Assembly: GCA_964478005.1 (NCBI GenBank)
Contig: CAYZGJ010000001.1
Location: 1 to 44,617 of the forward strand
Length of the DNA: 44,617 nt
DNA from: an uncultured Candidatus Peribacteria bacterium
GTDB taxonomy: Bacteria > Patescibacteriota > Gracilibacteria > Peribacterales > Peribacteraceae
Direction of reading: 5' to 3'
Shown: positions 2,004-37,976 of the stretch, in pieces
Numbering within the stretch: the stretch's first letter is position 1
Layout: each line of letters begins with the position of its first letter
Position numbers and translations under genes: made by a program
Notes under the pieces: generated by a model
The model's input: only the letters and a program-made list of their open reading frames with translations
The model's database searches: none
What the model was told of the DNA's origin: nothing

Positions 2004-4433
2004 TCATTGGTCGTTCCGTCGCCCTCCCGGGTACAACCACGCCTTCTCCGCCAGAGCGGTCCTCGCCACCCGGCGGCTGATCCATCGCGAGACGAGGATG
2101 CCCGAGAACATGGAAATGACGACGCCCAGGCCCAGCGTGACCGCGAAGCCCCGCACGATGGAGGTGCCGATCGTGAAGAGGATGACGCAGGTGATCAGCG
2201 TGGAGACATTACTGTCGCGGATACTGGGCCAGGCCTTCTCGAAGCCGATCTCCACGGCGGTCTTCAGCAGCTTGCCGCGCCGCAGCTCCTCCTTCACGCG
2301 CTCAAAGACGAGGACGTTGGTATCCACGGCCATGCCGATGCTGAGGATGATGCCCGCCGCGCCCGCCAGCGTCAGGACGATGTACTGGTCGGTGACCAGG
2401 AAGAGCGGCAATTTGAGCAGGGCGAGGAAGATCGCCGCGTAGGCAAGCAGCGCGAGGTTGGCGATGAGGCCGAGCAGTCGGTACACCGCCAGCATGTAGC
2501 ACATGAGGATGAGCGCGCCGAGCAGTCCCGCCAGAACCGAGGTCTCCAGCGCCTGCGCGCCGAGCGTCGCCTCCACCGTGCGCTGGCCGCTCAAGTAGAT
2601 GGGGGCGGGGATGGCGCCGGTATTGAGGTCCTGCGCCAGTTGCTGCGCTTCCTGGATGGTGCCGGCGCCGGTGATGACGGCCGAGCCGCCGGTGATCTCG
2701 CCCTGGACGGTGGGGGCCGAAACCAGTTCGCCGCCCACGAAGATGGCGATGCGCCTGCCGACGTTGTTGCGCGTCAGCTCCTGGAAGAGCGCGCCGCCCT
2801 CCGGGCTGAAGAGGATCTGCACCACGGGGAGATTCGTGGTGGGGTCCAGCGTGACTGCGGCCGAGCGGAAGTGCGTGCCGGTCAGGGGCGTGTCCTTCCA
2901 GCCGGTGGGCTGCAGTGAGAAGAACAGCATCCGCAGGCCGATCGCCTCTTCCTGCTGCCGTACCCGTCCTTCCTCCAGGCGCGTCTTGAGTTCCTCCGCG
3001 CGGTCGGCCGCATCCGGACCCGTGAGGGTGAGGACGTCGTACGACGCGCGGTCACTGGCGCTCCGGGGAGCCTCGTTGACCCGGATGAGGTGGTAGCCGA
3101 ACGGCGTTTCGACCGGCTCGCTGATGATGCCCGGTTGCTGCGCGAAAGCGACGTCTTCGAACGCAGGGACCAGCTCGCCGCGGCCGATGCGTCCCAGGCT
3201 GCCCGCACTCTCCGCGGAGGGGCCGTCGGACTCCGTCCGTGCCAGATCCTCGAAGGATGCGCCATTCTCGAGTTGCTGCTTGAGTTCCTGTGCGCGCTGC
3301 AGGGCTTCCTCTTTCGTGCGGCGGACGGAGGCCTCTGCGGCATTGGCGCCGGAGTAGGCGACGAGGATGTGACTGACGTCCACTTCTTCCCGGCCGGCGG
3401 CGAAAGAGCGCAGGAAGAGGAGCCCGGCCGTGCCGTCCTCCATCTCCGCCACTCGCAGCGTGCCCGGTTGCATGCCGCGCAGCGCCCCGATGAGACGGCT
3501 GGAAGACAGCTCATCGAGCGCCTGATCCTCCTGGACGGATGCGGTGGCGCCCGTCTCGGTGCGCGCCAGGAGTTCGAAGGCGGCCGCGGCTTCCGCCACC
3601 GTGCGGCCGGTCATCGCGCGCGGCGAAACGACTTCCGCCAGGAAGATGCCGGGAATCTGCTGCTGGATGGGCTGCTGGTTCTCATCCGGGACCTGCACGG
3701 TCAGCGTGCCTTCGCGGCGCAGCACCCCCTGATCGGGCCGTGCATTCCACAGATCATCCAGTCCCTCCGGCAACGTATCCCGGAAGAAGAGGCGGTTGTC
3801 TTCGTAGGCGACGCCCAGCGTGCTGCCCACGTCCTGCCCCACCACCGCCAGGCTGACGCCGCTCTGGGTGATGCGGCGCTGCGCATCGTCCGCGCGGGCG
3901 CGCACGGAGGCTTCGTACTCTTCCGTGGCTTCGGTGAATTCTTCCTTGAATTCCAGCTGGATGGTCTTGCCGACGGTCTCGATGCACACCTGCACGTCCA
4001 CGACCCCGGGGCACTCCACCAGCAGGTGTTTCTCGCCGCCCACGTACGAAGGCGTGATGACGGCCTCGCTCACGCCCAGCGCATTCACCCGGCGCTCCAG
4101 CACCGTGCGGATGGCTTCCACCAGGTTCTGCCGCTGCTGCTCCACGACCTGCCGCTCCAGGCGCAGTTCGCTGATGCGTTCGCCGGATCCGTCCGCGGCT
4201 TCCAGCTGCGCAATCTCTTCATCGATGCGCCGCAGCTGCTCCCGGATCTCCTGCTCGGAGATGCGGAAATCCAGCTGCGTGCCGCCGGCCAGGTCCAGCC
4301 CCAGGTGCAGGCCGGGATTGAGCCAGGCGGGCGCCCATCCCTGCTTCCACTGGTCGGGCAGGGCGATGACGAGGATGACGGCCGCGACGAGCGCTGCGAG
4401 GAGCGGCTTGAGAGAGGCGGTACGGGAGGTCAT
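2004..4433 (-). CDS. secD: protein translocase subunit SecD with embedded parvulin-type PPIase domain
   Basis: N-terminal TM plus GLDLAGGTQL. C-terminal SecD core with five further TM helices (VYRLLGLIANLAL, SIGMAVDTNVLVFERVKEE, IRDSNVSTLIT). Aa about 354-453 (nt 3075-3374) read SHILVAY...GSLGRIGRGELVPAFEDVAF...PVETPFGYHLIRV, a PpiC/parvulin signature. Confidence 0.85.
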   Translation of the reverse strand: MTSRTASLKPLLAALVAAVILVIALPDQWKQGWAPAWLNPGLHLGLDLAGGTQLDFRISEQEIREQLRRIDEEIAQLEAADGSGERISELRLERQVVEQQRQNLVEAIRTVLERRVNALGVSEAVITPSYVGGEKHLLVECPGVVDVQVCIETVGKTIQLEFKEEFTEATEEYEASVRARADDAQRRITQSGVSLAVVGQDVGSTLGVAYEDNRLFFRDTLPEGLDDLWNARPDQGVLRREGTLTVQVPDENQQPIQQQIPGIFLAEVVSPRAMTGRTVAEAAAAFELLARTETGATASVQEDQALDELSSSRLIGALRGMQPGTLRVAEMEDGTAGLLFLRSFAAGREEVDVSHILVAYSGANAAEASVRRTKEEALQRAQELKQQLENGASFEDLARTESDGPSAESAGSLGRIGRGELVPAFEDVAFAQQPGIISEPVETPFGYHLIRVNEAPRSASDRASYDVLTLTGPDAADRAEELKTRLEEGRVRQQEEAIGLRMLFFSLQPTGWKDTPLTGTHFRSAAVTLDPTTNLPVVQILFSPEGGALFQELTRNNVGRRIAIFVGGELVSAPTVQGEITGGSAVITGAGTIQEAQQLAQDLNTGAIPAPIYLSGQRTVEATLGAQALETSVLAGLLGALILMCYMLAVYRLLGLIANLALLAYAAIFLALLKLPLFLVTDQYIVLTLAGAAGIILSIGMAVDTNVLVFERVKEELRRGKLLKTAVEIGFEKAWPSIRDSNVSTLITCVILFTIGTSIVRGFAVTLGLGVVISMFSGILVSRWISRRVARTALAEKAWLYPGGRRNDQ

Positions 4434-5175: not shown

Positions 5176-6132
5176 TCAGCGGCGGATCAGCCGGGCGCCC
5201 GCGCGGATCATCTTGCCCGAGAGATCCACTCCCCGCAGCACGCACCCCTCATCGATCACGCAGTCCTCGATCACGCAGTCCTCGATCACGCAGTCGGCGA
5301 AGGTGACGGTATCCGTCAGACGGCTCTGCCGGACGGCCGTCCGGTCGCCCAGGACCACGCTGCCCGACGTCTCGCTCTCTTCCAGGACGGCGCCTTCCCC
5401 GCGGAGGACGCGGTCGCCCACCAGGCCGCGCGTGGCGTCCAGGTACGCAGAGAAGGACCCGATGTCGTACCACGGCGCGTCCGTCACGAAGCAATCGATG
5501 CCGATATTGCGCCGCAGACACTCTTCGAAGATGCCGCCGATGTTGTCGGGCCTGCGCTGTGCGTAGACGAGCAGCAGCGGCAGCACCTCGCGCGGGAGGA
5601 TCGAGCAGCCCGTGCTCACGATGCTGCTCCCGGGTTCCTGCGGCTTTTCTTCGAATCCGATGACGCCGCGGGTTTCCGCGTCCAGCAGGACCGTGCCGAA
5701 TGCCCGTGCCCGTGCGCGATCGTGGAGATCCACGGCGGCCAGCAGCGGGCGCTTGGGTTGGAATGCCCGCACAAATGCGCGCAGGTCGAATCCGAGGTAG
5801 TTGTCCCCGGCCAGCAGCAGCACGTCGTCGCGGATCTCCTCCCGCATGATCCACTGCGCCAGCGCCCCGAGCGCGCCCAGCTTGTCATCGTCACTCCTGG
5901 TTTCCTCGATGCGCACCGTCAGGGCGGGGTGGTCCATGGCTTCGGCCCACTGCATCATGTCCTCCCGGAACGCCGCGTTGGTGCTGACCGTCACAGGCAG
6001 GTCACGGGGCAGCCCGCGGACGATGTGCGTGAGGAGGGGGACGCCCGCCAGCGGCAGCAGCGGCTTGGCCCTCTTTTCCGTGAGGGGCCAGAGCCTGGTC
6101 GCATAGCCGCCGGCGAGGATGAAGACGCGCAT
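5176..6132 (-). CDS. sugar-1-phosphate nucleotidylyltransferase family protein with C-terminal left-handed beta-helix
   Basis: MRVFILAGGYATRLWPLTEKRAKPLLPLAG is the NTP-transferase G-loop. C-terminus has repetitive DCVIE units. Start at ATG 6132. Confidence 0.8.
   Translation of the reverse strand: MRVFILAGGYATRLWPLTEKRAKPLLPLAGVPLLTHIVRGLPRDLPVTVSTNAAFREDMMQWAEAMDHPALTVRIEETRSDDDKLGALGALAQWIMREEIRDDVLLLAGDNYLGFDLRAFVRAFQPKRPLLAAVDLHDRARARAFGTVLLDAETRGVIGFEEKPQEPGSSIVSTGCSILPREVLPLLLVYAQRRPDNIGGIFEECLRRNIGIDCFVTDAPWYDIGSFSAYLDATRGLVGDRVLRGEGAVLEESETSGSVVLGDRTAVRQSRLTDTVTFADCVIEDCVIEDCVIDEGCVLRGVDLSGKMIRAGARLIRR
5252..5296. repeat. 15-bp in-frame tandem repeat x3 (TCGATCACGCAGTCC)
   Basis: Two perfect copies plus one with a single mismatch. 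Encodes DCVIEDCVIEDCVID in the beta-helix tail of the nucleotidyltransferase. Confidence 0.9.
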
Positions 6133-6152: not shown

Positions 6153-6180
6153 AAATGTTAAATGCAAAATGCAAAATGAT
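6153..6180. repeat. heptamer microsatellite (AAATGYW)x4
   Basis: aaatgtt aaatgca aaatgca aaatgat, 21 nt upstream of the nucleotidyltransferase start (minus strand). Same unit as 44024-44058. GCAAAATGATC here is inverted against GATCATTTTGC at 6247-6257. Confidence 0.85.
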
Positions 6181-6261: not shown

Positions 6262-7062
6262 TCAAAAGAACCACTTCCACTTCCCCTCCTTGGGCCGCAC
6301 GACCGTCACCGGCTGTCCCTCCAGCGTCTCCACGCGTTCGTCACGTTCCACCATGCCCAGGACGGAGGGGAGCAGGAGGTAAGTGATGCCCCGGTTGCGG
6401 CAGGCGGAGAGCAGGTTGAGCGACTGCTCCAGATCGCTGCACTGGAGGAGGTGCGTGATGCGCTGCCCCGTCAGCACGTCTTCCAGCTTATTGAGTTTGC
6501 CCCGCACGGGGACGCCTGCGATCTCCGGCTCGGGAGTGCCGCGTCCGTCGAGCACGGCGACGGGCGTCAGGGGGTTGCGGCTGCGCTGCAGCGACTCGAT
6601 GAGGGCACGGGACTCGCGCGTGGCGCCGATGATCAGCGTGGGGAAGGCCGGAGGCGCGCGGCGCAGGAGCCGGCGCTGCAGACGGCCGAAGACGATGTGC
6701 CAGCCCCACGGAAGGACGACGGTGAGGGCCAGCGCCGTCAGCAGCAGCAGCCGACTGAAGAAGAGCCCGTAGACGAAGTAGTACCCCAGGGCGAAGAGCG
6801 CCGTCGCGACGACCGCCGCGTAGGCGATGTACATGCCCGTCCGCAGGCTTTCCTGATTCCTCAGCAGCGCGAACGTCCGCGTGGCGATCAGCGTGGCGAG
6901 CCACAGCGGCGCGGTGAGCAGCGCGATCAGCAGGAACCGGTCGAAGGGGAATGCGGTGGAGAGGACCCAGCCCACCCGCAGGAAGTACGCCAGTGCGTAG
7001 CATCCCACGAAGAGGGCCAGATCGGTCAGGAGCCAGAGGATCAGGAGGAGGGGGCGGCGCAT
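6262..7062 (-). CDS. N-terminal (TM plus Rossmann-like) portion of a polyprenyl glycosylphosphotransferase; catalytic domain absent
   Basis: Four to five TM helices, then TLIIGATRESRALIESL...VAVLDG...KLEDVL...ITHLLL as in WbaP/EPS-type sugar transferases. The ORF stops (KEGKWKWFF*) where the Bac_transf domain normally begins. Confidence 0.6.
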   Translation of the reverse strand: MRRPLLLILWLLTDLALFVGCYALAYFLRVGWVLSTAFPFDRFLLIALLTAPLWLATLIATRTFALLRNQESLRTGMYIAYAAVVATALFALGYYFVYGLFFSRLLLLTALALTVVLPWGWHIVFGRLQRRLLRRAPPAFPTLIIGATRESRALIESLQRSRNPLTPVAVLDGRGTPEPEIAGVPVRGKLNKLEDVLTGQRITHLLQCSDLEQSLNLLSACRNRGITYLLLPSVLGMVERDERVETLEGQPVTVVRPKEGKWKWFF

Positions 7063-8183: not shown

Positions 8184-9638
8184 ATGTCAACATCCGTCGC
8201 GAGCGCGGTCCACAACGGGCAGCAGCTCGCCCTCACCATCGAGAAACTGACCCATGGCGGGGCCGGACTGGCTTTCGTAGACGGCCTGCCTGTCTTCGTT
8301 CCCGGAGCCACCCCCGGCCAGCAGGTCGAGGTCGTGATCACCAAGCAGCGCGGCAGCTACGCCGAAGCGAAACTGCAGCGCGTGGTGCGCCGGGCGATCG
8401 ACGATGTCCCGCCCCGCTGCCAGCACGTGCACGACTGCGGCGGCTGCAGCTGGCAGCACCTGCCGTACGACAAGCAGCTCACGCACAAAGAGGACATCGT
8501 CCGCGAGACCCTGGGGCATCTCACGCCCGTGGACGAGGATCTGCGCCGCCAGCTGCCGGGCCGCGTGCTCAAGATCATCCCCAGCCCCCAGGTCTTCCAC
8601 TACCGCAATAAATTGGAGCTCTCCTTCGGGTACGCCACCATGCGGACGGAGGAGCGCGCCGGCAAGCGCATCTATCTGGATCAGGATCCGTCCATCGGCT
8701 TCCATCGCCCCAGCGACTGGGCCACGGTGCTGCCGATCAGCGAGTGTCATCTGTACGACGAGCAGAGCGCTTCGCTGATTGCCGATGTGAAGCGCTTCCT
8801 GCAGGAGACGCGCCTGCCCGTCTACAATCCCAAGACGCACAAGGGGTTCCTGCGCACGCTGCTGCTGCGCCGCGGCGTGCACACGGGGGAACACATGCTC
8901 TGCTTTCTCGTCAATGCGCGGAAGAAGGAACTCGAGCCGCTCTTCCAGCACTTCATGCGCTTCGCCGGGCGGCCGGGACTCAAGAGCCTGCTCGTCGTCG
9001 AGCACACGGGCATGAGCGACAAGCCCGAGCAGCCGCAGGTCCATGCGCTCCTGGGCAAGCAGACCATCACCGAGCGCCTCTTCGACCTCACGTTCGAGAT
9101 CTCGCCGTTCTCCTTCTTCCAGACCAACACCCTGGGCGCCGAAAAGCTCTACCAGGCCATCGCGCGCGGCGCGGACCTGCAGCGCACCGACACCGTCCTG
9201 GACGCCTACTGCGGGATGGGGACCATCGGGCAGTACCTGGCGCGCTCGTGCGAGAAGGTGGTGGGCATCGAGAGCCACCCCGCCGCCATCCAGGACGCCC
9301 TGACCTCCAGCGGCCGCAACCGCATCGCCAACATCAGCTTCTACAAGGGCCGCGCCGAGCAGGTCCTGCGCGACCAGCTGCAGCCGGGCGGCAAGTACCA
9401 CTTCGACGTCATTGTGGTCGATCCGCCCCGCGCGGGCCTCCACCCCAAGGCGCTCGATGCCCTGATCGCCCACGCCCCGCGCACGCTGGTCTACGTTTCG
9501 TGCAACACGGCGACCCTCGCGCGCGACATGGGCGGCCTCCTGAAAGCCGGCTACGAACTGCGCACCGTCCAGCCCGTCGACATGTTCCCCCACACGCCGC
9601 ACATCGAGACGGTCAGCGTGCTGGAGAGGAAGGGGTAG
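8184..9638 (+). CDS. rlmD: 23S rRNA (uracil-C5)-methyltransferase RlmD/RumA family (TRAM plus Fe-S plus SAM MTase)
   Basis: TRAM-like N-terminus (LTHGGAGLAFVDGLPVFVPGATPGQ). Cys cluster CQHVHDCGGCSWQH. MTase motifs LDAYCGMGTIG, VIVVDPPRAGL, YVSCNTATLARD. Confidence 0.9.
   Translation: MSTSVASAVHNGQQLALTIEKLTHGGAGLAFVDGLPVFVPGATPGQQVEVVITKQRGSYAEAKLQRVVRRAIDDVPPRCQHVHDCGGCSWQHLPYDKQLTHKEDIVRETLGHLTPVDEDLRRQLPGRVLKIIPSPQVFHYRNKLELSFGYATMRTEERAGKRIYLDQDPSIGFHRPSDWATVLPISECHLYDEQSASLIADVKRFLQETRLPVYNPKTHKGFLRTLLLRRGVHTGEHMLCFLVNARKKELEPLFQHFMRFAGRPGLKSLLVVEHTGMSDKPEQPQVHALLGKQTITERLFDLTFEISPFSFFQTNTLGAEKLYQAIARGADLQRTDTVLDAYCGMGTIGQYLARSCEKVVGIESHPAAIQDALTSSGRNRIANISFYKGRAEQVLRDQLQPGGKYHFDVIVVDPPRAGLHPKALDALIAHAPRTLVYVSCNTATLARDMGGLLKAGYELRTVQPVDMFPHTPHIETVSVLERKG
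9575..9627. repeat. direct repeat copy A: last 53 bp region of rlmD
   Basis: CGTCGACATGTTCCCCCACACGCCGCACATCGAGACGGTCAGCGTGCTGGAGA recurs at 10385-10437 with one mismatch. Confidence 0.95.
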
Positions 9639-10384: not shown

Positions 10385-10437
10385 CGTCGACATGTTCCCC
10401 CACACCCCGCACATCGAGACGGTCAGCGTGCTGGAGA
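10385..10437. repeat. direct repeat copy B: vestigial rlmD 3' end
   Basis: 52/53 identical to 9575-9627. Would encode VDMFPHTPHIETVSVLEMK* against VDMFPHTPHIETVSVLERKG* in the intact gene. Confidence 0.95.
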
Positions 10438-10452
10438 TGAAGTGACGGAGGG

Positions 10453-10741: not shown

Positions 10742-11206
10742 ATGCAGAAGATCACCCTCCTCACGATCGGCGCGCTGAAGGAGTCCTGGGCGAAGGAGGC
10801 GGCGCGTCTGTATCGCGAGCGCATCGTGCATGCCGCGGATCTGCGGGTGCTGGAATTGCAGCCCAGCCGCCAGCCGCATGCGGCGGGGCAGCAGGCGGAG
10901 GAATCGGAGCGATTGCTCCTTTCCGCACGCAAACAGCCGGGACTTCTGATCGTCCTCGACGAACGGGGCGAGGACATTACATCGCAGGAACTTGCAGAGC
11001 TGCTGGGAACAGCCCGGGACCGGGGCGAATCGTTGCAATTCATTCTGGGCGGGTCCTATGGCCTCACCGATACCGTCCGTTCCTCGGCGCACACGGTCCT
11101 GCGCCTCAGCTCCCTGACGCTGCCGCATGAGCTCTGCAGAGTGCTCTTTCTCGAACAGCTCTACCGGGGCTTCGAAATGCTCAAAGGGAGCGGGTATCAC
11201 CATTGA
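10742..11206 (+). CDS. rlmH: 23S rRNA (pseudouridine1915-N3)-methyltransferase RlmH (SPOUT)
   Basis: 154 aa. LDERGEDITSQELAELL, FILGGSYGL, LSSLTLPHELCRVLFLEQLYRGF...GSGYHH are typical of RlmH. TGGTAGAGT lies 6 nt upstream of the ATG. Confidence 0.9.
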   Translation: MQKITLLTIGALKESWAKEAARLYRERIVHAADLRVLELQPSRQPHAAGQQAEESERLLLSARKQPGLLIVLDERGEDITSQELAELLGTARDRGESLQFILGGSYGLTDTVRSSAHTVLRLSSLTLPHELCRVLFLEQLYRGFEMLKGSGYHH

Positions 11207-11380: not shown

Positions 11381-11429
11381 TCTCTACCGCGCCCACGAAA
11401 TCCTGAAGGGGAGCGGGTATCATCACTGA
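11381..11429 (+). pseudogene. diverged duplicate of the rlmH 3' end
   Basis: ctctaccgcgcccacgaaatcctgaaggggagcgggtatcatcactga aligns with rlmH 11159-11206 (39/48). It would encode LYRAHEILKGSGYHH* against LYRGFEMLKGSGYHH*. Confidence 0.8.
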
Positions 11430-11469: not shown

Positions 11470-11634
11470 ATGCAAAAAATTCACGTCGAGCAGCACTCGT
11501 TCACGGGCGGCATGTGGTTCGCCCTGTGGCTCTTCACCATCGGGTTCCTGCAGCTTGGCTTCTGGAAGGGCGTGCTGGCGCTCCTCCTGTGGCCGTACTT
11601 TTTGGGCGCGGCGCTGAGCGGACTGCTGTCATAG
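11470..11634 (+). CDS. small two-TM membrane protein (54 aa), below the ORF-track cutoff
   Basis: MQKIHVEQHSFTGGMWFALWLFTIGFLQLGFWKGVLALLLWPYFLGAALSGLLS. TACAGT lies 7 nt upstream of the ATG. Its 3' end is duplicated at 13962-13994. Confidence 0.6.
   Translation: MQKIHVEQHSFTGGMWFALWLFTIGFLQLGFWKGVLALLLWPYFLGAALSGLLS
11590..11622. repeat. direct repeat copy A (33 bp, 3' end of small membrane gene)
   Basis: TGGCCGTACTTTTTGGGCGCGGCGCTGAGCGGA is identical to 13962-13994. Confidence 0.95.
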
Positions 11635-11802
11635 GGCGTCGTTTTTCCGTATGCTCTCCAGTATCTCCAGCATCCGCTGCCAGGCTGCGGAGCGAGCGGA
11701 GGCGTTTTCGTGCGAAGCGTCTGGTTCTTCCTCCAGCCGCATGAAAGCGTGGCCGGCTCCCTCGTAGATGACGGGTGCAAACGCGATGTGCGTCAGCGAA
11801 AA
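11629..11802 (-). pseudogene. C-terminal remnant of a dienelactone hydrolase-family gene
   Basis: Minus-strand frame reads FSLTHIAFAPVIYEGAGHAFMRLEEEPDASHENASARSAAWQRMLEILESIRKNDAL*. It is preceded by an in-frame TGA, has no start, and lacks the N-terminal three quarters of the fold. Confidence 0.45.
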
Positions 11803-11825
11803 TCATTCCGCATTCGTGTATGCAT

Positions 11826-12053
11826 TCACAATCTACAAGGCAAATCCAACCCAAGATTACATCCGATTACAAAAACGAATAAAAGAATCATGCCACCGGA
11901 AAGCATCACAATGGTGACCATAATAGCTGTAAATACAATCATCTCCGGCCACTTTCGTCGCTTCCAATACAGAAACACATTCCTTCCCAATATGAACATG
12001 AGCGTACCCCAGAGCAGTACGATACTACCAAGAATGAGGTTATCTTCATTCAT
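11826..12053 (-). CDS. small membrane protein, hypothetical (75 aa)
   Basis: Two to three hydrophobic helices in an AT-rich patch. No recognisable family. Confidence 0.4.
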   Translation of the reverse strand: MNEDNLILGSIVLLWGTLMFILGRNVFLYWKRRKWPEMIVFTAIMVTIVMLSGGMILLFVFVIGCNLGLDLPCRL

Positions 12054-12128
12054 GTAAGAATGCTATCACACATTGCCATCGGGAGAGTCTCTTGAGATTT
12101 TAATGAACAAGAGGACTACACTGTGCCA

Positions 12129-13952
12129 ATGAAGCTGTCTGCTCTCCGCAGGATGCCGGATTTCCGCCGGGCGCGCGATGCCGTGTCCGTCTCCCGGCGG
12201 TTGCTCGGGATGATCTGGGATATGGACCCGAAACTGTTCATTGGATCATTGATTGTGATCCTCATTCCGGCTGTCATTCCCTTCATCAATGCGTACATCT
12301 ACAAACTTCTCATTGATGCGGTAATCCTGAACATTGCCGGTGCGGCGCTGGAGGTCCGGCACCTCGTCATTCTCCTTATCATCCGCGTTGCCACGTACTT
12401 TTTGCAGGATGCTTCCTTCAGCGCGCAGACCTACATGGAGAGATTGCTATGGACCAAGTTTCCCATCTATTTGCATCAGCGCTTGTACACGGACCTGTCG
12501 CAACTGGATATGGAGACATTGGAGAATCCGCAATTCCGCAATACGCTGGAGCAGGTGAAGGAATCGGTGTACCGTCCTCAGAATCTCATTACCAACTTGC
12601 TCTACGGCTGTCAGAGTCTCGTGCAACTCTTCATCGCATTCGGTGCTCTTCTCGCACTGAACTGGGTGTTCATTCTGTTGGTACTCTTCGTCGCCATCCC
12701 CGAATTCGTCTATCGCCTTTACGAAGACAAAGCCGGATGGACCATCTGGGCTTGGCACAGTCCGCGCAAGAAGCGATTTTCCTATGTGTCGCACTTGTTG
12801 CAGGATGCGCAGAGCGTCAAGGAAATGCGCATTTTTCGGTTGGCACCGCTCTTTGTACGGGAGGCGACGGAGGCACAGGAAGCGTTTTATCGCGAGAACA
12901 AGGCGCTCGCGGGACGGGCACTTCTGTTTCAGATTCTGTTCAATGTTCTCTCCACCCTTCTGATCGTCGGTATCGAAACATATGTCATCCTGCTTGCGTT
13001 TCTGCGTCGGGTGACGATCGGTGACATCAGTTTTTACACGTCCGTGGTGGCCAACTTTCAAAACGGTCTCGGGGGATTGCTGCGCAATATGAACGGCATT
13101 TTTGAATCGAGTTTGTATGTTCGGAGTATCTTCGATGTCATGGATGCCCCGAGGCACATTGTTTCTCCACCCGATGCTCCGGCCAGGACGATGCATCGGC
13201 CGCCGTCCATCGTGTTCGATCACGTGACATTTCGTTATCCGGGTGCGGACCGGGATGTTCTGCATGATTTTTGCGTTGGTATCGCTCCGGGCGAGAAGGT
13301 GGCTTTTGTGGGAGAGAACGGCGCGGGAAAAACGACGATCATCAAGCTGTTGGCGCGCTTCCATGATCCCACGTCCGGACGCATTCTCGTCGATGACAAG
13401 GATTTGCGGGAGCTTCACTTGGAGAGCTGGCATCAGCAGTTGGCCGTTCTGTTTCAGGATTTCAACCGCTACGAAGATACGGCGAAGCATAATATATATT
13501 TTGGGAATGTGCTTAAAGCGATGGATGCACGGGAAATCGAAAGGGCCGCAGAGGATGCAGGAGCCACAGTCGTCATTGATACCTTGAAGAAAGGATATGA
13601 TCAGATGCTCGGACGCGTGTTCGAATCGGGGGAGGAGTTATCGGTGGGTCAGTGGCAAAAGATTGCGCTGGCGCGGGCATATTTTCGGAATGCGCCGGTG
13701 CTGGTGCTGGATGAGCCCACGGCGGCCATCGATGCCAAAGCGGAAGCGGAGATTTTCGCGCGGGTGGAGGAGCTGAGTCAGGATAAGACCGTCCTCCTCA
13801 TTTCCCATCGGTTCTCGACCGTCCGCATGGCCGATCGCATCATCGTGGTGCAGGACGGTGCGGTGCTCGAGCAGGGCAGCCACGATGCATTGATGAAACG
13901 AAAAGGTCTGTATGCGGAACTCTTCACTCTGCAGGCGAAAGGATATCGTTGA
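12129..13952 (+). CDS. ABC exporter, fused permease/ATPase (MsbA/multidrug-like)
   Basis: Six N-terminal TM helices. Walker A GENGAGKTT, signature LSVGQWQK, Walker B VLVLDEPT, H-loop LISHR. TACACT (12117-12122) lies 6 nt upstream of ATG 12129; the ORF track starts at GTG 12123. Confidence 0.9.
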   Translation: MKLSALRRMPDFRRARDAVSVSRRLLGMIWDMDPKLFIGSLIVILIPAVIPFINAYIYKLLIDAVILNIAGAALEVRHLVILLIIRVATYFLQDASFSAQTYMERLLWTKFPIYLHQRLYTDLSQLDMETLENPQFRNTLEQVKESVYRPQNLITNLLYGCQSLVQLFIAFGALLALNWVFILLVLFVAIPEFVYRLYEDKAGWTIWAWHSPRKKRFSYVSHLLQDAQSVKEMRIFRLAPLFVREATEAQEAFYRENKALAGRALLFQILFNVLSTLLIVGIETYVILLAFLRRVTIGDISFYTSVVANFQNGLGGLLRNMNGIFESSLYVRSIFDVMDAPRHIVSPPDAPARTMHRPPSIVFDHVTFRYPGADRDVLHDFCVGIAPGEKVAFVGENGAGKTTIIKLLARFHDPTSGRILVDDKDLRELHLESWHQQLAVLFQDFNRYEDTAKHNIYFGNVLKAMDAREIERAAEDAGATVVIDTLKKGYDQMLGRVFESGEELSVGQWQKIALARAYFRNAPVLVLDEPTAAIDAKAEAEIFARVEELSQDKTVLLISHRFSTVRMADRIIVVQDGAVLEQGSHDALMKRKGLYAELFTLQAKGYR

Positions 13953-13961
13953 TTCATCAGT

Positions 13962-13994
13962 TGGCCGTACTTTTTGGGCGCGGCGCTGAGCGGA
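13962..13994. repeat. direct repeat copy B (33 bp)
   Basis: Identical to 11590-11622. Would encode WPYFLGAALSGWL*. Confidence 0.95.
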
Positions 13995-14031
13995 TGGCTC
14001 TGATCGCCGCGCCCGTTGGGATGCCATGGGC

Positions 14032-15610: not shown

Positions 15611-16291
15611 TCAGGAGGCCAGCATCCACCGCACCGGATTGTCCGCGATGTAGGCGCGGATGCGATCCCGTTCCGCCTCATTCCGGATGATGCGGTCGTG
15701 GTACCGGGCTTGCCATGCGAAATCGATCCCGTGTTGCCGGGCGTACAGGGTGACGCCGATTTTGAATCCGCGGATGATGGATGCCAGGTTGCGGGATTGG
15801 GGACCGAACCGGTTGCATGTGCGTGTGTGTGGTGGGTGTTGGGACGCGGTGGGTGGGGGTGGTAAATGCGCGGTGGGTGGGGGCGGTAGAGACGCAAAAT
15901 CTTGCGTCTCTACCACGAAACACCCATGCGTTCGTACCATGGATTGCGGCGCATCGATGACCACGATCCCATGCACGTGGTCCGGCATGATGACGAATGC
16001 GTCCAATCGCACGAACGGGAAATGATCCGGAATGGCCATCTAACAGGCGTGCGCGGCCTCCCCCAAGGGCGTCCGGTGCATGCGTGTCGCGTCGCGGGGG
16101 TCATCGGGTCTGGTGTTCCAGGCCGTTTCATCAATGGTGCCGAACGAGGGACGTCGCCCTTTCGTGCAGATCGTCACGTAGTACGCGCCCTTCGATCCGT
16201 AATCCCATCGCGGATTGCGGGCGGAGGGGATGCGGTATGTGCCTCGGAACCATTCATCATTTGATCTATCCACATGTTCCATGTCCCTCAT
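15611..16291 (-). pseudogene. REP-associated tyrosine transposase (RAYT, IS200/IS605-like Y1 HUH) interrupted by in-frame TAG
   Basis: ORFs 16040-16291 and 15611-16039 are in the same frame, separated only by TAG (plus-strand cta at 16040-16042). HUH motif MPDHVHGIV. Tyr motif WQARYHDRIIRNE. The stop aligns with a Trp of the intact paralog at 25679-26269. Confidence 0.75.
15886..15913. repeat. REP-like palindrome GTAGAGACGCAAAATCTTGCGTCTCTAC inside the RAYT pseudogene
   Basis: 12-bp perfect stem with a 4-nt loop. Translated as VVETQDFASL in the RAYT frame. Near-identical copy at 43067-43094. Confidence 0.85.
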
Positions 16292-22800: not shown

Positions 22801-22968
22801 AGACGTTCCGGCGGAACGTCTTTACTGCATGGGACGAGAGAGATATCCGGCGGAACGTCTGTACTGCATGGGGCGAGAGAGATATCCGCTGCAACGTCTG
22901 TACTGCATGGGACGAGAGAGATATCCGGCTGCATGGGACGAGAGAGATATCCGCCGGAACGTCTCTAC
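22797..22968. repeat. composite REP array filling a convergent intergenic region
   Basis: Left end GTAGAGACGTTCCGGCGGAACGTCT, right end CCGGAACGTCTCTAC. In between, the core CTGCATGGGRCGAGAGAGATATCCG occurs at 22825, 22864, 22903 and 22929 (39-bp period, then 26). Confidence 0.9.
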
Positions 22969-32375: not shown

Positions 32376-35300
32376 TCATGCCGCTTGTGCCGGTTGCACA
32401 TCGGATGGATCGATCGTTGCAGTGCGTTCAGGGCGAGAGACGGGCGTGGGAGGTGGACGGGGCAGAATCGCATCAGCGCGCTGCAATAATCCTTCCACCG
32501 AAAGCAGGTGTGTATCTGCTCCGATGGCAGCAAGAGTATCTGCCTGTCCGGACTTCGCCTGCTGCAATGCAATCTCATTGGGATCGTCGTCCAGGAGGGA
32601 GATACGCAACGCAGTGATGGCTGATGCCACATCTTCCGGTGTCAATGATGTGCTGCTTTGCGCTTTTGTGGAAAGATCGCGCAAAACCGTCAGTGCCCTC
32701 TCGGCGAACGCGCCGCGCGCGATAGCACGCAAACTTTCTTCACTCTGCCCCCTGCCCGGCATCCAAGACCAGCTGCGTCTGTCCGTCCAGTTGGAATAGT
32801 TCGCCGAAAGAATTTTTGCCTCGCAAGCCGCCAGTTCATGCTGCACTGCAAGGAGCATCTTCCACGGCATGTGCTCCCGGAACAGGGAAGGATGCGCCGC
32901 CAGCGATGCGATATCCATCACCTGCAGTGCCTCGACTTGCGCATAAGCCTCCTCAACCTCCGCTTCCTTTTCTTCCCACGATCGTTCATCGGACCGGCTG
33001 TTGCCCGCAGGATCACGCAGGAAAGCGCGCTGCTCCAGCGTGCGAATGCGAGCGTACAACTCCGCCTTACGTACGGTCTCGGGATCAACCGGCACAAATG
33101 TCTTCTGCGTCTTCTCCTTGAGGTAGGTGACCGCTGCCGTAGCAAAGTATCCCATTTCGTCGCGCAGGCGCTGCGCGATGCGCTCCTCCCGCTTCTCCGG
33201 AGGCAAGCCGCGATCGCTTTCCGACAGATCGTCTTCTGCAAGGGGCGGGAGGGACCAGAGTGCTGCCTGGCGGAAGTATCCGGCGTATCCTTGCATGCGC
33301 GCAGTGGCATCAGCTTTGTCAAATGTTTCAGACATGTCCGATGCCACGAGATTCAATTGCGGACCGGCAAGCATCTTTGCAGGATCGGCAGCGAGCGCCT
33401 GCCCCCATGTCTTCTCCTGTTGAATGTGGTGCAGAATGGCCCCCGGTGTTTCCTGTGACAGCTCTTGTTCATTTCTCAATAATCGCTTTGTCCCCGCTTC
33501 GATGTTCCGACGAATCGGTTGCGCTACAAGATTATTGGTAGCCAACATGGCAACACCAATCGGCATTCCAGGTGAGTACAGAAGTGCTGTTCCTGCTGCA
33601 TTGATTTCCAAACTTGCCGTGTTGCCCCAATTTAACTCTCGTTCCAATTGCGCTTTCTTTGCGGGGTCCGTCTCTGCATCTATCGCATCCAACAAACGTG
33701 GGCGCTCGTTTTGAAAATAATCGTATGCCTCATATCCGACTGCAGCCGTATCAAGTACCACCGTTCCCTTCACCACTTTCCCTAGCCGCGCTAGGCGGGC
33801 GGGAACGGGGATGTGAGAGATGATTCGGGAAGATATCCCCATAGCTGCGCTTCGTCCTCGTTCATACTGCCGTAAAAAGCCTCTCAGTGGGGGCGCGAGG
33901 AATGAACCGCGAATACTCACGAAGCGCTGAATATTGATCGCGTGTCTCAAAGCCGGTTGTCGTGCGATAAGGAGGGCTTTATTCCTCTCAGCTATGAGAC
34001 CATATTGCCTGAATTCAGCTGCCAATTGCATCCAAAGCGCTTTGTTATGCGGTGATGCCGTACACCTGTTGAGTAGTTCCTTGAGGCTGCTCCGCACCTG
34101 CGAAGACAAGGCCGTATTATCAAGAGCCGATTCGAATTTCTTATAACAATCCGCCGCATGCCCGATGGCCGAAACCGAAGGGCCGCCGATCATCCTTTGC
34201 GACGCATTGATCACCCGATTCACAGGGTCCGTATTGAGCGCGCGAATATGCCAGGACTTCAATCCATCTTGTACATTGGCATACGTAATAAACGGACGTG
34301 TAACGAACCGGCTTGCTTCTCCAACAGCTATTGTTGCGCCGAGGGCGGGCAAGGGCCATTCCTTTACAATGGATGACATAATCTCCATTGTTTCCACTCC
34401 CCCTCGCACAAAGGTATATCCTACCGTTTTGCCAATCATGACCAGCGAGGGCACCGCCTTTTCAAACATTTCCGGATAACTCATACTGACCCCGAGCTTC
34501 TGCCATTCCTCCTGCAACGTTTCGCCGCTGGCACCGGCCAGCTTCTTCGCAATTCTCTGGATGATGCGATATTTTCTATCGCTAAACCAACGTTCATCTG
34601 CATCCGCGACAAATTTCAGTACTTCCATCTGCATGAGAATGAGTCCGGTGGGATTCCCCTGTTTCATCATGCGCTTATAAAAATACAGGCGCAGTGCTTG
34701 ATGCGGAGGCATGCGGTCCAAGAGATAGGTGCGCACGCGCTCGGCATCGGTGTCCCCTTCATTGCTGGGGAAGATGTCATGGAAACAAGGGAGAATGAAA
34801 AGATGCGTGTCGCCGTTCTGAATCTCTTCAAAGACCTTTGCAATGATTTGATCCTCCAATGTTTCCGCAGGGTTGCGCCTTGCGTACTCAATGCGATCAG
34901 CCACGGTGGAGTTGACTGAGCTTGCCGCGGCAATCGCAAAAAGCTTGCCGCTATCGACCGCTGTTTCTTCCTCCGTCAAACCGAATTCCGCGGCATGCTC
35001 CCGCACGAACTGCTGCAATTCCCGTTGCAAGTCTTGGTTGCCGCGAGAAATAGTCTGCAAATCAAGATGCCGCAAAGCCTGCACGATATCCTGACCCTGT
35101 TCAATTTGTTGCGTGAATCCGTATAACACCTCCGTCACTGATTCCATCACGGCATACCGCAGATATTCCTTCAGTGTCATCGCATCCATTTGCATCTGCG
35201 CCTGTTCGGGTGAGATGCCATCTCTCTCCACGAGCTGTGCCAGTACTTCCGGCTCCTTCTCTGCGCAGAGCGACAACAGGAGTTCTGCTCCCTGCATTCT

Positions 35301-36416: not shown

Positions 36417-36424
36417 ATCACATC

Positions 36425-36433
36425 AGTATAGCA
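36425..36433 (-). promoter_or_regulatory. extended -10 (TGCTATACT) 8 nt upstream of the giant ORF start
   Basis: The minus strand reads TGCTATACTGATGTGATATG. Confidence 0.4.
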
Positions 36434-36482
36434 AAAAACGATCCAAAATGCCACTTTACCTTGGTCTCCCGCTCTCCTATCC

Positions 36483-36701
36483 TCAGCCACGAAATGGTCG
36501 TCCCATGGCCCCGGCTACAGCCCCACGCACACCCGCAACAAGGGTCCTACCTAGGGCACCACCTGCATATCCGGCAGCAGATCCACTAAATACAACAGCA
36601 TCACCCAAGGTAGCAGCCACCCCACGTCTCGTGCCGGCGCATACATGTTCGACAGCACTTAGTGCAACGGGGCCCGTTTCAGGATGTCGTCGGACCGGCA
36701 T
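36483..36701 (-). CDS. Gly/Ala-rich small protein (72 aa), hypothetical
   Basis: Its start overlaps the stop of the 297-aa ORF as TAATG. GVAATLGDAVVFSGSAAGYAGGALGRTLVAGVRGAVAGAMG is glycine-zipper-like. Confidence 0.45.
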   Translation of the reverse strand: MPVRRHPETGPVALSAVEHVCAGTRRGVAATLGDAVVFSGSAAGYAGGALGRTLVAGVRGAVAGAMGRPFRG

Positions 36702-37594
36702 TATGCAGTTGTGGAAGCGGGAGGGGCATCTGCGGCCGGTGCAGCACCGGGAGTCTCGGGAGCGGCGGCGGGTGCGGGGGCAGGAGCAGCAGGTGCTTCA
36801 GGAGTGGATGCCGGTGGAGCGGATGCAGGAGCAGGAGTCGATTGCTGTTGCATATTCTCTTTCACTTTTTGCGCACTCTCCAATATATCCTTTGTAGTAA
36901 GTTTTTGCTTGTTCGAGGGGCTTTGCTCGACCACACTGATCAGAAAGGATGCAAGCGGAATCTGTTGCGCAGCCACTTTCCCGCTATTGACACTACTGAG
37001 AATTTTGACAACTTCTCGCATGTTCTCGTCATCCTTGGACCCCGCCTCAAATGTTCTCTTGTTTGCACTGAGAGCAGCGAAAAGCTCTTTCATCCCCGGC
37101 CCCTTCGGCAGCAGCCAATCGGGCACGGTGATTCCAAAACTCATTAAGGATGGTAAGAGCGGCCCCAACATTTTTGCCAGCAAATTTTGCAACTTATCCG
37201 CCGTCTCCATGAGCATATTCGTAATCTTTGTCACCGCACCCATGCCTTTTTCAATATTGTCTTGCGCAAAGAGCACCGTATTATCTTGGAATCTTTGATA
37301 AATACTGTCGATACTGAGTTGTGTAGCTTCTACAGCATCCCTCAATGCATCCGGCACTTCATCCAGTCGCCATTTGGCTACTTCAGTCTTGAGACCATCC
37401 AGAGCTTCTCCACTCATGTTCTTCACTTGCTCGCGCGCGTCTCTCAACGCAGTCAATGCGCTGTTCACGATATCTTCCGACACTTCCGCACCGGTCTCTT
37501 GCACTACTTTCATTCTTTCTCGTATTGCGCTCAGTGTATCGACTGGGCGCTCAGGTGGATTGGTGTCGGGTGCGGAACCGGGTGCGTTTGTCAT
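36701..37594 (-). CDS. 297-aa helical protein with Pro/Ala-rich C-terminal tail, hypothetical
   Basis: Long ORF in the same low-GC block, with no TM helix and no motif. The tail reads STPAPASAPPASTPEAPAAPAPAPAAAPETPGAAPAADAPPA. Confidence 0.6.
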   Translation of the reverse strand: MTNAPGSAPDTNPPERPVDTLSAIRERMKVVQETGAEVSEDIVNSALTALRDAREQVKNMSGEALDGLKTEVAKWRLDEVPDALRDAVEATQLSIDSIYQRFQDNTVLFAQDNIEKGMGAVTKITNMLMETADKLQNLLAKMLGPLLPSLMSFGITVPDWLLPKGPGMKELFAALSANKRTFEAGSKDDENMREVVKILSSVNSGKVAAQQIPLASFLISVVEQSPSNKQKLTTKDILESAQKVKENMQQQSTPAPASAPPASTPEAPAAPAPAPAAAPETPGAAPAADAPPASTTA

Positions 37595-37629
37595 ACGGAA
37601 AGATGGGAAGGGATGTGTGTATGAGTAAA

Positions 37630-37857: not shown

Positions 37858-37884
37858 GAATGCGTTTGGTATGTATTTGCCACT

Positions 37885-37913: not shown

Positions 37914-37976
37914 CCACCGCCCCACGGGCCGCTCGGATGTGCTACCATGCCCCCGTTCCTTCCCCCCTCGCTCTCT

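Follow-up and report, generated by a model that had tools for sequence, protein, structure and literature searches.

An ABC exporter insert between two versions of a small gene's 3' end in a Candidatus Peribacteria chromosome, and gene-end repeats at related loci

Genes and features of the locus

The DNA analysed here, a window of 44,617 nt, is part of the chromosome of a Candidatus Peribacteria bacterium (CPR). The locus varies in content, but its backbone is conserved. The backbone genes are, in order, a TrmA-like methyltransferase gene, the RlmH gene, tRNA-Glu, a gene for a small membrane protein and an AI-2E permease gene. The locus was compared between the window, L002 and L006-L012. L002 kept the backbone with other cargo (TrmA-[7 genes]-RlmH-[NYN]-[86 aa]-small gene-[MIP]-AI-2E), and TrmA adjoins RlmH in more distant Peribacteria. 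A metagenome scan with the TrmA-like protein returned three Peribacteria-like contigs, none of them reaching over the small gene, and mostly distant RlmD-type homologues.

The small gene (11470-11634, + strand) is intact and encodes a conserved protein of 54 aa. It belongs to a widespread family of ~54-aa membrane proteins with 305 homologues, the best of which were 81-88% identical; an exact-protein look-up found no record of the protein itself. W41, P42, Y43 and G46 are invariant in the family, and this WPY..G motif falls inside the repeat described below. With a GC3 of 0.87, the gene is backbone-like. Its last 45 nt form the target and left junction of the insert.

In the window, TGGCCGTACTTTTTGGGCGCGGCGCTGAGCGGA has two exact matches (0 mismatches), located at 11590-11622 and 13962-13994. 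A third site was not found in the whole window when up to 3 mismatches were allowed, and the expectation from 100 shuffles was 0. The repeat is real and non-random. Beyond the exact 33-bp core, the copies are alike over 43 nt at 91%. The left copy (+ strand) lies within the 54-aa gene and comprises the codons WPYFLGAALSG, while the in-frame reading of the right copy is WPYFLGAALSGWL*. The orphan 3' end of the small gene (13962-14003, + strand) consists of the repeat followed by TGG CTC TGA and thus reads ..SGWL*. Exact matching and translation therefore agree with the preliminary description, which had reported a perfect repeat whose left copy closes the 54-aa gene and whose right copy would give an alternative terminus.

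Two versions of the small-gene end

That description had regarded the repeat as a duplication of the resident terminus, and here the data led to a different result: the two ends, AALSGLLS* and AALSGWL*, are distinct, both are family-typical, and each has its own hairpin. In a comparison of the tails of 120 homologues, the left tail (LLS and the TAG stop, 11623-11634, + strand; putatively imported) had the canonical 8-residue form AALSGLLS, close to AALSGLLR and VALSGLLH. The orphan tail AALSGWL resembled AALSALL and VALSGWVK. Judged by these tails, the copies are two different versions of the small-gene end and not a product of read-through. A 53-aa protein ending in ..SGWL, which would be the empty-site form, was absent among the best 120 of the 305 homologues, although a near-identical protein should have headed this list.

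The left copy is followed by a weak hairpin 3' of the tail and by a T5 run at 11643-11647. At the right copy, a GC-rich hairpin was found at 13976-14014 (+ strand; inverted repeat I4 with 15-nt arms and a 9-nt loop). The left arm is part of the orphan repeat, and the right arm belongs to the flank downstream of it. Folding gave an MFE of -34.5 kcal/mol with a z of -3.16 for this hairpin, compared to a z of -0.06 for the left-copy context. The hairpin represents the native structure where the small gene ends opposite a convergent 66-aa ORF. Since two distinct family-typical tails are each accompanied by their own downstream hairpin, one of the gene ends appears to have arrived with the insert. 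On the tail comparison, a target-site duplication at the small gene was also rejected.

Content and composition of the insert

The 2.3 kb between the repeat copies hold three elements, namely, a remnant of a dienelactone hydrolase (DLH) gene, a 75-aa ORF and a complete ABC exporter gene. The remnant (11630-11803, - strand) is a start-less C-terminal part of 57 codons with an in-frame stop upstream. It matched the Pfam family DLH (PF01738) with an E-value of 3.2e-6 and 27.3 bits (cut-off 21) over profile positions 174-215 of 217, the last 42 positions; the profile alone identified it, as neither a word-indexed search nor an exhaustive phmmer search gave a match. Remnant and small gene converge, with an overlap of 1 nt between their stops (tca at 11630-11632, TAG at 11632-11634). 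The 75-aa ORF (11826-12053, - strand) is hydrophobic and, with a GC of 0.41, the lowest-GC segment. It had no family match in Pfam, and an exact-protein look-up gave no recorded copy.

The cargo gene (12129-13952, + strand) encodes a complete ABC exporter of 607 aa with fused permease and ATPase (ABC_tran, E 7e-30). Its homologues have 604-607 aa and align over 97-100%, and the nearest relatives (67-69% identity) come from Peribacteraceae/Patescibacteria. A -10-like hexamer, TACACT (12117-12122, + strand), lies 6 nt upstream of the ATG and would represent a leaderless-type promoter by its consensus match; TAnnnT at a like spacing also precedes the small gene, the AI-2E permease gene and other genes. 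Between the ABC stop and the orphan end, the 9-nt spacer TTCATCAGT (13953-13961, + strand) forms the distal, non-homologous junction. The genes of the insert are divergent and located on both strands, which rules out a retro-copied transcript as its source. No replication gene was found in the insert. The three elements and the overlap of the stops were confirmed as previously claimed. So was the mosaic nature of the cassette, which combines the 3' remnant of a DLH gene with an unrelated ORF of low GC and an ABC exporter. At L106, the ABC homologue is also preceded by a 116-aa ORF matching Asp_Glu_race, which may be another gene fragment.

A comparison of GC between insert and flanks, as the preliminary description had advised, gave 0.41-0.60 for the insert (0.54 for the ABC exporter) versus 0.61-0.68 for the backbone genes. 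The GC3 was 0.44-0.66 in the insert (DLH remnant 0.44, 75-aa ORF 0.47, ABC exporter 0.66) versus 0.77-0.94 in the backbone. As all three elements have a non-backbone GC3, the whole block including the DLH remnant was probably imported. These data support a foreign, compositionally distinct insert at the small-gene 3' terminus, between two copies of this terminus. A recent insertion is plausible from the perfect 33-mer and the un-ameliorated GC, but a homologous crossover, too, requires and leaves a perfect block.

Gene-end repeats at other genes and in other Peribacteria

Repeats of gene ends, 27-104 nt in length, flank nine further inserts or insert regions in Peribacteria. In the window, the 3' end of the TrmA-like gene (9575-9632, + strand) is repeated over 58 nt at 97% in an orphan end at 10385-10442 (+ strand), and the two copies flank an NYN insert. 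The orphan has the canonical stop position and the TGA of the closest relative, while in the functional copy a Gly codon is added and the stop is TAG (..KG*). Only 5 nt separate the TrmA stop from the NYN stop. The genuine RlmH 3' end (11159-11206, + strand) and its orphan (11382-11429, + strand) are alike over 48 nt at 81%. The orphan is orthologous to one in L002, with 40 of 42 nt identical, and the surrounding intergenic DNA of the two genomes is unalignable.

It had been proposed that the small-gene insert is the third insertion at a gene terminus within 4.5 kb. The same architecture was seen at the TrmA-like gene 2 kb upstream and in other Peribacteria genomes. The repeat at RlmH is present as well, but an inserted tRNA cassette at RlmH is not, since tRNA-Glu lies natively downstream of RlmH. 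tRNA-Glu(CTC) follows RlmH on the same strand after 83 nt in L006 and about 350 nt in L009, and it is found on the downstream side, usually past inserted DNA, in all other carrying Peribacteria loci except L002. In the window, it lies between RlmH and the RlmH orphan, while it is inverted or relocated in L002 and L007.

RlmH-end orphans were also found in L002 (two), in L007 (27 nt, with a 6-kb insert) and in L008 (45 nt, with a 1.6-kb insert). In L002, cassettes are arrayed after RlmH with a copy of the RlmH end after each of them, and the proximal copy is closer (93%) than the other (89%). All five RlmH-end orphans end at the stop codon and start 27-104 nt upstream; for the small gene, only a single event is known. 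In three samples (L100-L102), an ABC homologue lies between 91-nt repeats of the Obg 3' end with 99% identity that start exactly at the stop codon; the repeat runs past the contig end in L102. In L103, an rSAM-ABC-GNAT block lies within 70-nt repeats (96%) of the -10 box and the first 25 codons of a ZIP gene. In all 3'-end cases, the similarity of the copies ceases within 12 nt of the stop codon, and in the RlmH and Obg cases the stop codon is inside both copies with the similarity ending there. Two RlmH-adjacent inserts (L010, L011) and two ABC loci (L104, L106) had no repeats. A crude count gave about 10 flagged repeats per 221 kb versus 8 per 1,093 kb in control loci, an enrichment that is biased by ascertainment because the loci were found via genes of this region. 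Literature searches gave no account of such gene-end bracketing in Peribacteria/CPR.

These repeats bear on three other explanations. An illegitimate insertion with a long target-site duplication, in which foreign DNA was copied between staggered breaks or by MMBIR-like template switching, would suit repeats that vary in length (27-104 nt) and have no motif in common, and also the TrmA block, which ends just before the stop so that the functional copy reads into the insert. Yet both differing tails of the small gene are family-typical with a canonical stop, for which the chance by random read-through is about 4e-4 by a rough estimate, and a frame-blind mechanism would not repeatedly give RlmH and Obg copies that include the stop with the similarity ending there. 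This explanation is considered very unlikely.

Alternatively, the orphan ends could be debris of rearrangements, either of segmental duplication and deletion or of double-crossover replacements from debris-bearing relatives, and the 33-bp repeat would be a passive scar. The RlmH orphan beside the small gene is common to the window and L002 and is therefore old and inherited, and the different positions of tRNA-Glu relative to RlmH and its orphan indicate that rearrangement happens here. Differing cargo between conserved flanks is also known from the minimal mobile elements of Neisseria (PMC3787668). However, the origin of the first scar is left unexplained by this model, and it gives no account of why the scars are terminal pieces of at most 104 nt ending at a stop codon or why they recur independently at five genes, with 97-100% identity in three cases. 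It is judged improbable.

Finally, a 2.37-kb circular or foreign sequence with the 33-mer might have been threaded into the chromosome path by the assembler, or a chimeric join might have arisen at the repeat. The source is a metagenome-type assembly, and in an independent k=31 assembly (Logan, SRR31189356) the window-identical contigs break in the repeats, with L099 ending at 13965 and L098 starting at 10408. Look-ups with the RlmH and Transgly_assoc proteins likewise gave only short, window-identical k=31 contigs of SRR31189356 that stop inside repeats. At k=31 the graph branches in these repeats, and an integrated insert would look the same there as an empty site accompanied by a circle. 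Against an artefact, 33 bp is shorter than the k-mers and reads usual for final contigs, two coincident misjoins would be required, the insert has no replication gene, and like architecture is present in independent assemblies of other samples (L100/L101/L102, L002, L007, L008 and L103). An assembly error at this site is considered very unlikely.

Searches for recombinases and site motifs

About 40 ORFs of the window, two inserts included, were scanned with Pfam, and no integrase, resolvase or intact transposase domain was found. An ORF outside the insert (15611-16039) gave a sub-threshold Y1_Tnp match (E 0.0024). The called genes with Pfam annotation in L001-L003 and L100-L108 include no recombinase, nor was one seen in the L007 and L008 inserts, as judged by reading the ORF translations alone. 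No k-mer core of 6 nt or longer is common to three or more of the repeat sites at the five genes. Terminal inverted repeats were looked for in the insert as well, and there are none. Degenerate patterns of the RlmH and small-gene ends gave 0 matches in viral contigs.

Several classes of elements were rejected. An integron cassette does not agree with gene-specific coding ends that have no shared motif, the lack of an IntI-like gene and a sole palindrome that is the native small-gene hairpin. A transposon or insertion sequence was dismissed, as there are no terminal inverted repeats and no transposase in the insert and the 33-bp repeat has differing tails. Xer-dependent modules (IMEX/pdif with dif-like 11-6-11 sites) would require the shared core that the repeats of five genes lack. 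Homing by an NYN endonuclease was rejected for the small-gene insert, which contains no NYN gene; moreover, homing leaves no direct repeats. Direct repeats derived from the end of a target gene that stays intact, here the 54-aa gene with its canonical tail, are characteristic of integrative islands, but an element-encoded recombinase (tyrosine or serine) was found neither in the insert nor among the scanned ORFs of the window.

The recombinase could be supplied in trans, as for SCC, CIME or tycheposons, by an integrase encoded at another genomic site or by a helper element. The inserts would then be decayed or satellite integrative elements whose attP bears the target 3' end, and the 33-bp repeats would be attL and attR. 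The intact gene, the replacement of the resident end by an element-borne one and the direct repeats correspond to the architecture of islands at 3' ends. Two of the targets, RlmH and the rumA-type gene, are classical ones: SCCmec inserts at rlmH (orfX), and ICEs are found at rumA-type methyltransferase genes. The array after RlmH in L002 with its closer proximal copy is like that of SCC composite islands. The breakpoint of identity in the small-gene repeat lies within the 9-nt spacer of the palindrome with 15-nt arms, a geometry like that of a recombinase site. The RlmH orphan of the window and L002 is conserved above the surrounding DNA, which hints at a functional site and favours a dedicated recombinase.

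On the other hand, integrase and resolvase domains were absent from the ten inserts examined, the scanned window ORFs and the Pfam-annotated related loci, and at least five unrelated targets without a common core would require several integrases. The inner boundary of the RlmH repeats ranges over 27-104 nt, and in the ZIP case the promoter and 5' end of a gene are duplicated. The truncated DLH gene, natively juxtaposed to the imported end, marks a chromosomal fragment and not an evolved attP, and viral contigs with the RlmH-end or small-gene-end pattern were not found. Integration in trans is therefore regarded as possible but rather unlikely, though the strongest of the competing explanations.

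Proposed mechanism

The reading favoured here, for which the prospects are about even, is that homeologous recombination between gene ends inserted a chromosomal fragment of a related bacterium. The segment 11623-13961 would be a non-autonomous accessory islet gained by the Peribacteria chromosome at a lineage-wide variable stretch. The incoming DNA may have been an already rearranged chromosomal fragment of a related, lower-GC bacterium, bearing the donor small-gene 3' end abutted by its convergent DLH neighbour, followed by the 75-aa ORF and the ABC exporter. A single reciprocal crossover between the imported and the resident gene end, within the perfect 33-bp block, would have integrated it in a Campbell-type ('ends-in') manner by host general recombination, presumably of the RecA type, with no need for an element integrase; for this, the fragment is assumed to have been circularised or permuted. 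The imported end would then close the functional gene (..SGLLS*), and the resident end (..SGWL*, with the native hairpin) would be displaced 2.37 kb downstream as the orphan. For the cell, this would mean one more ABC exporter, under a leaderless-type promoter of its own. Repetition of such events at the TrmA, RlmH, Obg and ZIP gene ends could lead to cassette-like arrays, and a reverse crossover at the flanking repeats to loss of an insert.

In agreement with this reading, the left junctions look native, compact and convergent (small gene/DLH, TrmA/NYN), and the right ones are abrupt (ABC stop, 9 nt, orphan). That the orphan is the resident end fits the TrmA case, in which the orphan keeps the stop position and TGA of the relative and the functional copy differs. 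A variable inner boundary is to be expected if an orthologous coding end is carried on fragments of arbitrary length. Some observations speak against the crossover. An empty-site allele, a circle junction and a near-identical donor were not found, the best ABC relative being 69% identical. All repeats are at most 104 nt long, so that an unbiased fragment model needs instability of longer repeats. A length of 33 bp is about the minimum for RecA-type recombination (MEPS in E. coli), and such crossovers should thus be rare.

CPR bacteria are uncultured organisms with tiny genomes. The analysis yielded a reproducible signature that can be searched genome-wide, namely, accessory genes between two orthologous core-gene ends, recombinase-free in the inserts examined, and it bears on the poorly understood gain and loss of accessory genes in CPR. 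If capture by host recombination is true, it would be a simple, additive mechanism of gene gain suiting lineages that import DNA and are poor in mobile genetic elements, and it would account for cassette-like arrays that form in the absence of integrons and integrases. Should a recombinase act in trans instead, the gene-end sites mark its targets, the classical rlmH site included. Speculatively, Peribacteria, and perhaps CPR widely, might gain accessory genes mainly by an integrase-independent additive route with core-gene ends as landing pads. One crossover would suffice to capture any fragment with 27-100 nt of an orthologous end, integron- or SCC-like arrays would result, and the displaced ends would persist, maybe conserved, as reusable sites. 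So broad a generalisation is unlikely to hold, slightly more so than integration in trans.

Comparison with known systems

The inserts share with SCCmec/SCC, rumA-type ICEs and tRNA islands the position at the 3' end of an intact gene with a second end copy at the distal side, the arrays with a gene-end copy after each cassette (L002) and the rlmH and rumA-like targets. They differ in that no Ccr or integrase gene was found in the inserts and scanned window ORFs, and in their longer and variable repeats (27-104 nt). The five targets are unrelated, three lie within 4.5 kb and one is a 5' end. The inserts are tiny (0.8-6 kb), and the small-gene insert holds a truncated chromosomal neighbour gene.

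Prochlorococcus tycheposons (Hackl et al. 2023) reportedly form arrays of small modules in hot spots with partial copies of the target 3' end between them, many modules being without an integrase. They target tRNA genes and are defined by a tyrosine recombinase or tycheposon-specific genes, whereas the Peribacteria inserts lie at protein-coding genes and showed no recombinase. The microcin H47 island of E. coli is described, in the accessible text of the reports, as small, with short direct repeats, and as excising and moving without encoding a site-specific recombinase, the excision being RecA-independent (PMC3191183, PMC5426353). That text does not present the repeats as the terminal parts of a neighbouring conserved gene, and the case is that of a single island and not of a lineage-wide pattern.

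The minimal mobile elements of Neisseria are cassettes between conserved flanking genes that are exchanged via transformation and homologous recombination (PMC3787668, PMC1797815). As in Peribacteria, alternative cargo is found in the same backbone slot, mobility genes are lacking and host homologous recombination is presumed. The Neisseria exchange is a double crossover in both flanking genes and is not known to leave duplicated gene ends. In contrast, one gene end is present twice at the Peribacteria locus, which implies a single-crossover, additive event.

In homology-facilitated illegitimate recombination (HFIR) during natural transformation (de Vries and Wackernagel 2002), adjacent foreign DNA is said to enter by a one-sided, short homologous anchor, with the other junction being non-homologous. 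The anchor and the non-homologous far junction are like those of the small-gene insert, but HFIR normally deletes recipient DNA beside the anchor and does not duplicate the anchor. CPR bacteria generally encode DNA-uptake machinery, and an HFIR-type entry would therefore fit these organisms.

Two natural ends of a small membrane-protein gene

The window contains two exact copies of the 33-mer TGGCCGTACTTTTTGGGCGCGGCGCTGAGCGGA (11590-11622 and 13962-13994). Allowing up to three mismatches gave no additional match there, and none is expected from shuffles. The similarity reaches 43 nt at 91%. The left copy closes a 54-aa ORF (11470-11634) that belongs to a genuine, widely distributed family of small membrane proteins (305 homologues; identity of the best, 81-88%). 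The invariant WPY..G motif of this family falls inside the repeat. The block of perfect identity is 33 bp long and breaks off abruptly into diverged tails. The intact gene ends with AALSGLLS before the stop, the canonical eight-residue form of the family (cf. AALSGLLR, VALSGLLH), and it is very unlikely that random read-through would produce L-L-x-stop at the canonical length. Read in frame, the right copy gives ..WPYFLGAALSGWL and a stop codon. The tail of this orphan end (13962-14003), AALSGWL, is likewise family-like (cf. AALSALL, VALSGWVK).

The orphan and its downstream flank fold into a strong GC hairpin (arms 13976-13990 and 14000-14014) with a minimum free energy of -34.5 kcal/mol and a z of -3.2. 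For the left copy, pairing is with insert sequence instead and gives a weaker hairpin followed by T5. Given these family-like tails and separate hairpins, the two copies come from different genomes, and each is a full, natural end of the small gene together with its terminator region. The preliminary description was accurate in all its descriptive statements on the repeat, the small gene's end, the three elements between the copies and their composition, and the insertion at a gene terminus that it had read is real. It had also taken the repeat for a duplication of that terminus; on the comparison of tails and hairpins, the copies are two orthologous gene ends instead. That the event was recent, as had been proposed, is plausible.

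Contents and junctions of the insert

Three elements lie between the copies (11623-13961), in support of the mosaic content described before: a start-less remnant on the reverse strand, whose match to Pfam DLH covers the 42 C-terminal positions of the profile (E 3.2e-6, exceeding the curated cut-off), a 75-aa hydrophobic ORF (ORF75) with no family match in the Pfam scan, and a complete ABC exporter of 607 aa. GC in the insert ranges from 0.41 to 0.60 and GC3 from 0.44 to 0.66; the GC3 of backbone genes is 0.77-0.94. Since the GC3 of the DLH remnant (0.44) is not that of the backbone, the remnant arrived with the insert. The left junction is a compact convergent gene pair in which the stops of the small gene and the remnant overlap by one base. 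At the NYN insert, which lies about 2 kb upstream at the 3' end of the TrmA-like gene (repeat copies 9575-9632 and 10385-10442), 5 nt separate the TrmA stop from the NYN stop. The distal junctions are abrupt, with the ABC stop followed after 9 nt by the orphan.

A TACACT hexamer is located 6 nt ahead of the ATG of the ABC exporter, a spacing shared by several further genes of the window besides the small gene and the AI-2E permease. TAnnnT hexamers were seen 5-8 nt upstream of the start codons of the window genes at 11470, 12129, 14587, 28878, 36416 (-) and 18136 (-), a placement that would fit an organism in which leaderless transcription is frequent.

This type of ABC exporter is common in Peribacteraceae and Patescibacteria, and its nearest relatives are 67-69% identical. 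In three Peribacteraceae loci, a radical-SAM gene immediately precedes a homologue (L103 4429-7824, L104 4429-7824 and L105 570-3965), with a weak SPASM match at the radical-SAM gene in L103 only; the pairing suggests peptide maturation and export. The exporter of the window has no radical-SAM partner and stands alone with ORF75. Directly upstream of another homologue, in L106, a 116-aa ORF matching Asp_Glu_race (6615-6965) may be a gene fragment comparable to the DLH remnant.

Chromosomal setting

The window is chromosomal. Its genes include DHFR, SecDF, ProRS, L25 and a DEAD helicase, and the nearest relatives of RlmH, the TrmA-like protein and the ABC exporter are all in MAGs of Candidatus Peribacteria/Peribacteraceae. 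The local backbone runs TrmA-like methyltransferase, RlmH, tRNA-Glu, small gene, AI-2E permease. Among relatives with a long contig, the closest (L001/L002, GCA_029558515.1; TrmA 85%, small protein 81%) carries wholly different cargo on this common backbone, in the order TrmA-[DUF2975 x2, HTH, MFS, tRNA-Glu inverted, Vsr, HNH, Dcm]-RlmH-[NYN]-[86 aa]-small gene-[MIP]-AI-2E. Its 5-kb block from TrmA to RlmH (L002 2888-8106), with an inverted tRNA-Glu(CTC) and a Vsr-HNH-Dcm trio that looks like a restriction-modification or mismatch-repair module, is not flanked by a TrmA-end repeat. In more distant Peribacteria, TrmA directly abuts RlmH, which is an empty site for the window's NYN insert, and tRNA-Glu(CTC) comes after RlmH. 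As the backbone is kept while the cargo differs and TrmA abuts RlmH in distant Peribacteria, the stretch is a lineage-wide variable region. The tRNA-Glu of the window, previously counted as another instance of cassette insertion, is probably resident because tRNA-Glu lies directly downstream of RlmH in L006 and L009.

Several further features were observed in the window. Outside the insert, a 142-aa ORF at 15611-16039 (-) contains the HUH-like motif MPDHVHGIV and a sub-threshold match to IS200-type Y1 transposases (E 0.0024); it is broken by a proline-rich low-complexity stretch and is probably a degenerate RAYT/IS200-like gene. The heptamer AATGCAA(A) forms short tandem runs at two distant intergenic places (6154-6174 and 44018-44066), and a 39-nt unit (TCCGGCGGAACGTCT.TACTGCATGGG.CGAGAGAGATATCCG..) is present in three to four tandem copies at 22807-22955, a region without a convincing gene call. 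The stretch 32376-39200 holds a 1346-aa ORF with a GC3 of only 0.57 and no Pfam match, followed by about 3 kb of low GC3 and few matches. It may be another imported block, and no flanking direct repeat was detected there.

Recurrence of gene-end repeats

Recurrence was examined by self-comparison of related loci. L002 contains the RlmH 3' end three times, namely, the genuine end, a 94-104-nt copy past NYN and a 38-42-nt copy past the 86-aa ORF. A 27-nt copy occurs in L007, 6 kb downstream of RlmH and preceded by a 1414-aa surface-protein-like, an ECF-sigma-factor-like and an adjoining 376-aa ORF, and L008 has a 45-nt copy 1.6 kb downstream, past lipoprotein-like and zinc-peptidase-like ORFs (both judged from translations). 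Contigs from three samples (L100, L101 and L102, where the repeat runs off the contig end) have an ABC homologue 68% identical to that of the window (P0123) between two copies of the Obg 3' end, 91 nt long and 99% identical. The repeat begins exactly at the Obg stop codon (5242-5332 and 7930-8020 in L100), and the orphan end was called as a 30-aa ORF. The rSAM-ABC-GNAT block of L103 is bracketed by a 70-nt, 96% direct repeat (4146-4215 and 8475-8544) made up of the -10 box of a ZIP transporter gene with its start codon and first 25 codons, so that gene 5' ends are duplicable as well as 3' ends. The DNA left of this repeat has a GC content of only 0.39.

Such repeats were found at three out of five ABC loci having both flanks. 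In a rough automated count, about 10 terminal-repeat pairs were flagged in 221 kb of Peribacteria loci, two of them false positives within repetitive proteins, versus 8 in 1,093 kb of loci from unrelated bacteria. Genes of this region had served to select the Peribacteria loci, which makes the ratio indicative only. The pattern extends across the lineage and came without an integrase in every case seen.

An orphan RlmH 3' end upstream of the small gene is orthologous between the window (11382-11429) and L002 (9918-9958), with agreement at 40/42 nt. The intergenic DNA that flanks it cannot be aligned between the two, and the genuine RlmH ends are more diverged from their own orphans (33/42 in the window and 36/41 in L002). 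The conserved orphan may be a functional site.

Origin of the two copies and mechanism

At TrmA, the orphan stops with TGA at the canonical position, as in the closest relative; the functional copy runs one Gly codon further and stops with TAG. Taken together, the tails, hairpins, convergent junction, DLH GC3 and TrmA stops indicate that the incoming DNA brought its own copy of the target gene's end, which now terminates the gene, and that the orphan is the displaced resident end. The same evidence as a whole excludes a simple target-site duplication. This arrangement is what one reciprocal crossover would produce if the resident gene end recombined with a gene end carried by an incoming molecule that was circular (or permuted). 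The empty site would then read ...CTCCTCCTG-[33-mer]-TGGCTCTGATCGCCGCGCCC and the circle junction ...GGATATCGTTGATTCATCAGT-[33-mer]-CTGCTGTCATAGGGCGTCG.

General homologous recombination is given roughly even chances of being the engine of this crossover. No recombinase gene was found in ten inserts (eight examined by Pfam domains, L007 and L008 by reading ORFs) or in the Pfam-annotated neighbouring loci, and no integrase, resolvase or intact transposase domain in the ORFs scanned across the window. The repeats of five unrelated target genes have no common core, and at RlmH, the sole gene with several events, their inner boundary varies from 27 to 104 nt. These results, the case of a 5' end with promoter and the perfect 33-bp block favour homologous recombination over a site-specific recombinase acting in trans. 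The latter is considerably less probable, although rlmH and rumA-type genes are classical integration targets, the L002 array is SCC-like with the more similar copy proximal, and the RlmH orphan is conserved amid unalignable DNA. The truncated neighbour gene natively juxtaposed to the imported end also favours homologous recombination, as it marks a fragment of a related genome's chromosome and not an evolved attP.

The probability left by these two engines is divided among passive rearrangement debris, template switching and an assembly artefact. Contigs from an independent assembly at k=31 (SRR31189356) are identical in sequence to the window and stop inside the repeats, which shows that strain and branching exist in that data set; these contigs fit an integrated insert and a circle plus empty site alike.

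Comparison with known systems

No description of this pattern for Peribacteria/CPR was found in the literature. Tycheposon arrays offer an analogy, although they depend on tRNA genes and an integrase. Integrative islands in gene 3' ends match in anatomy and differ in their defining recombinase, which was tested for here and not found. To our knowledge, the minimal mobile elements of Neisseria leave no duplicated gene end, in contrast to the loci described here. Their slot-like variable cargo (PMC3787668, PMC1797815) resembles the variability of this region. A precedent for an island that is bounded by repeats and moves without a recombinase of its own is MccH47 of E. coli (PMC3191183, PMC5426353).
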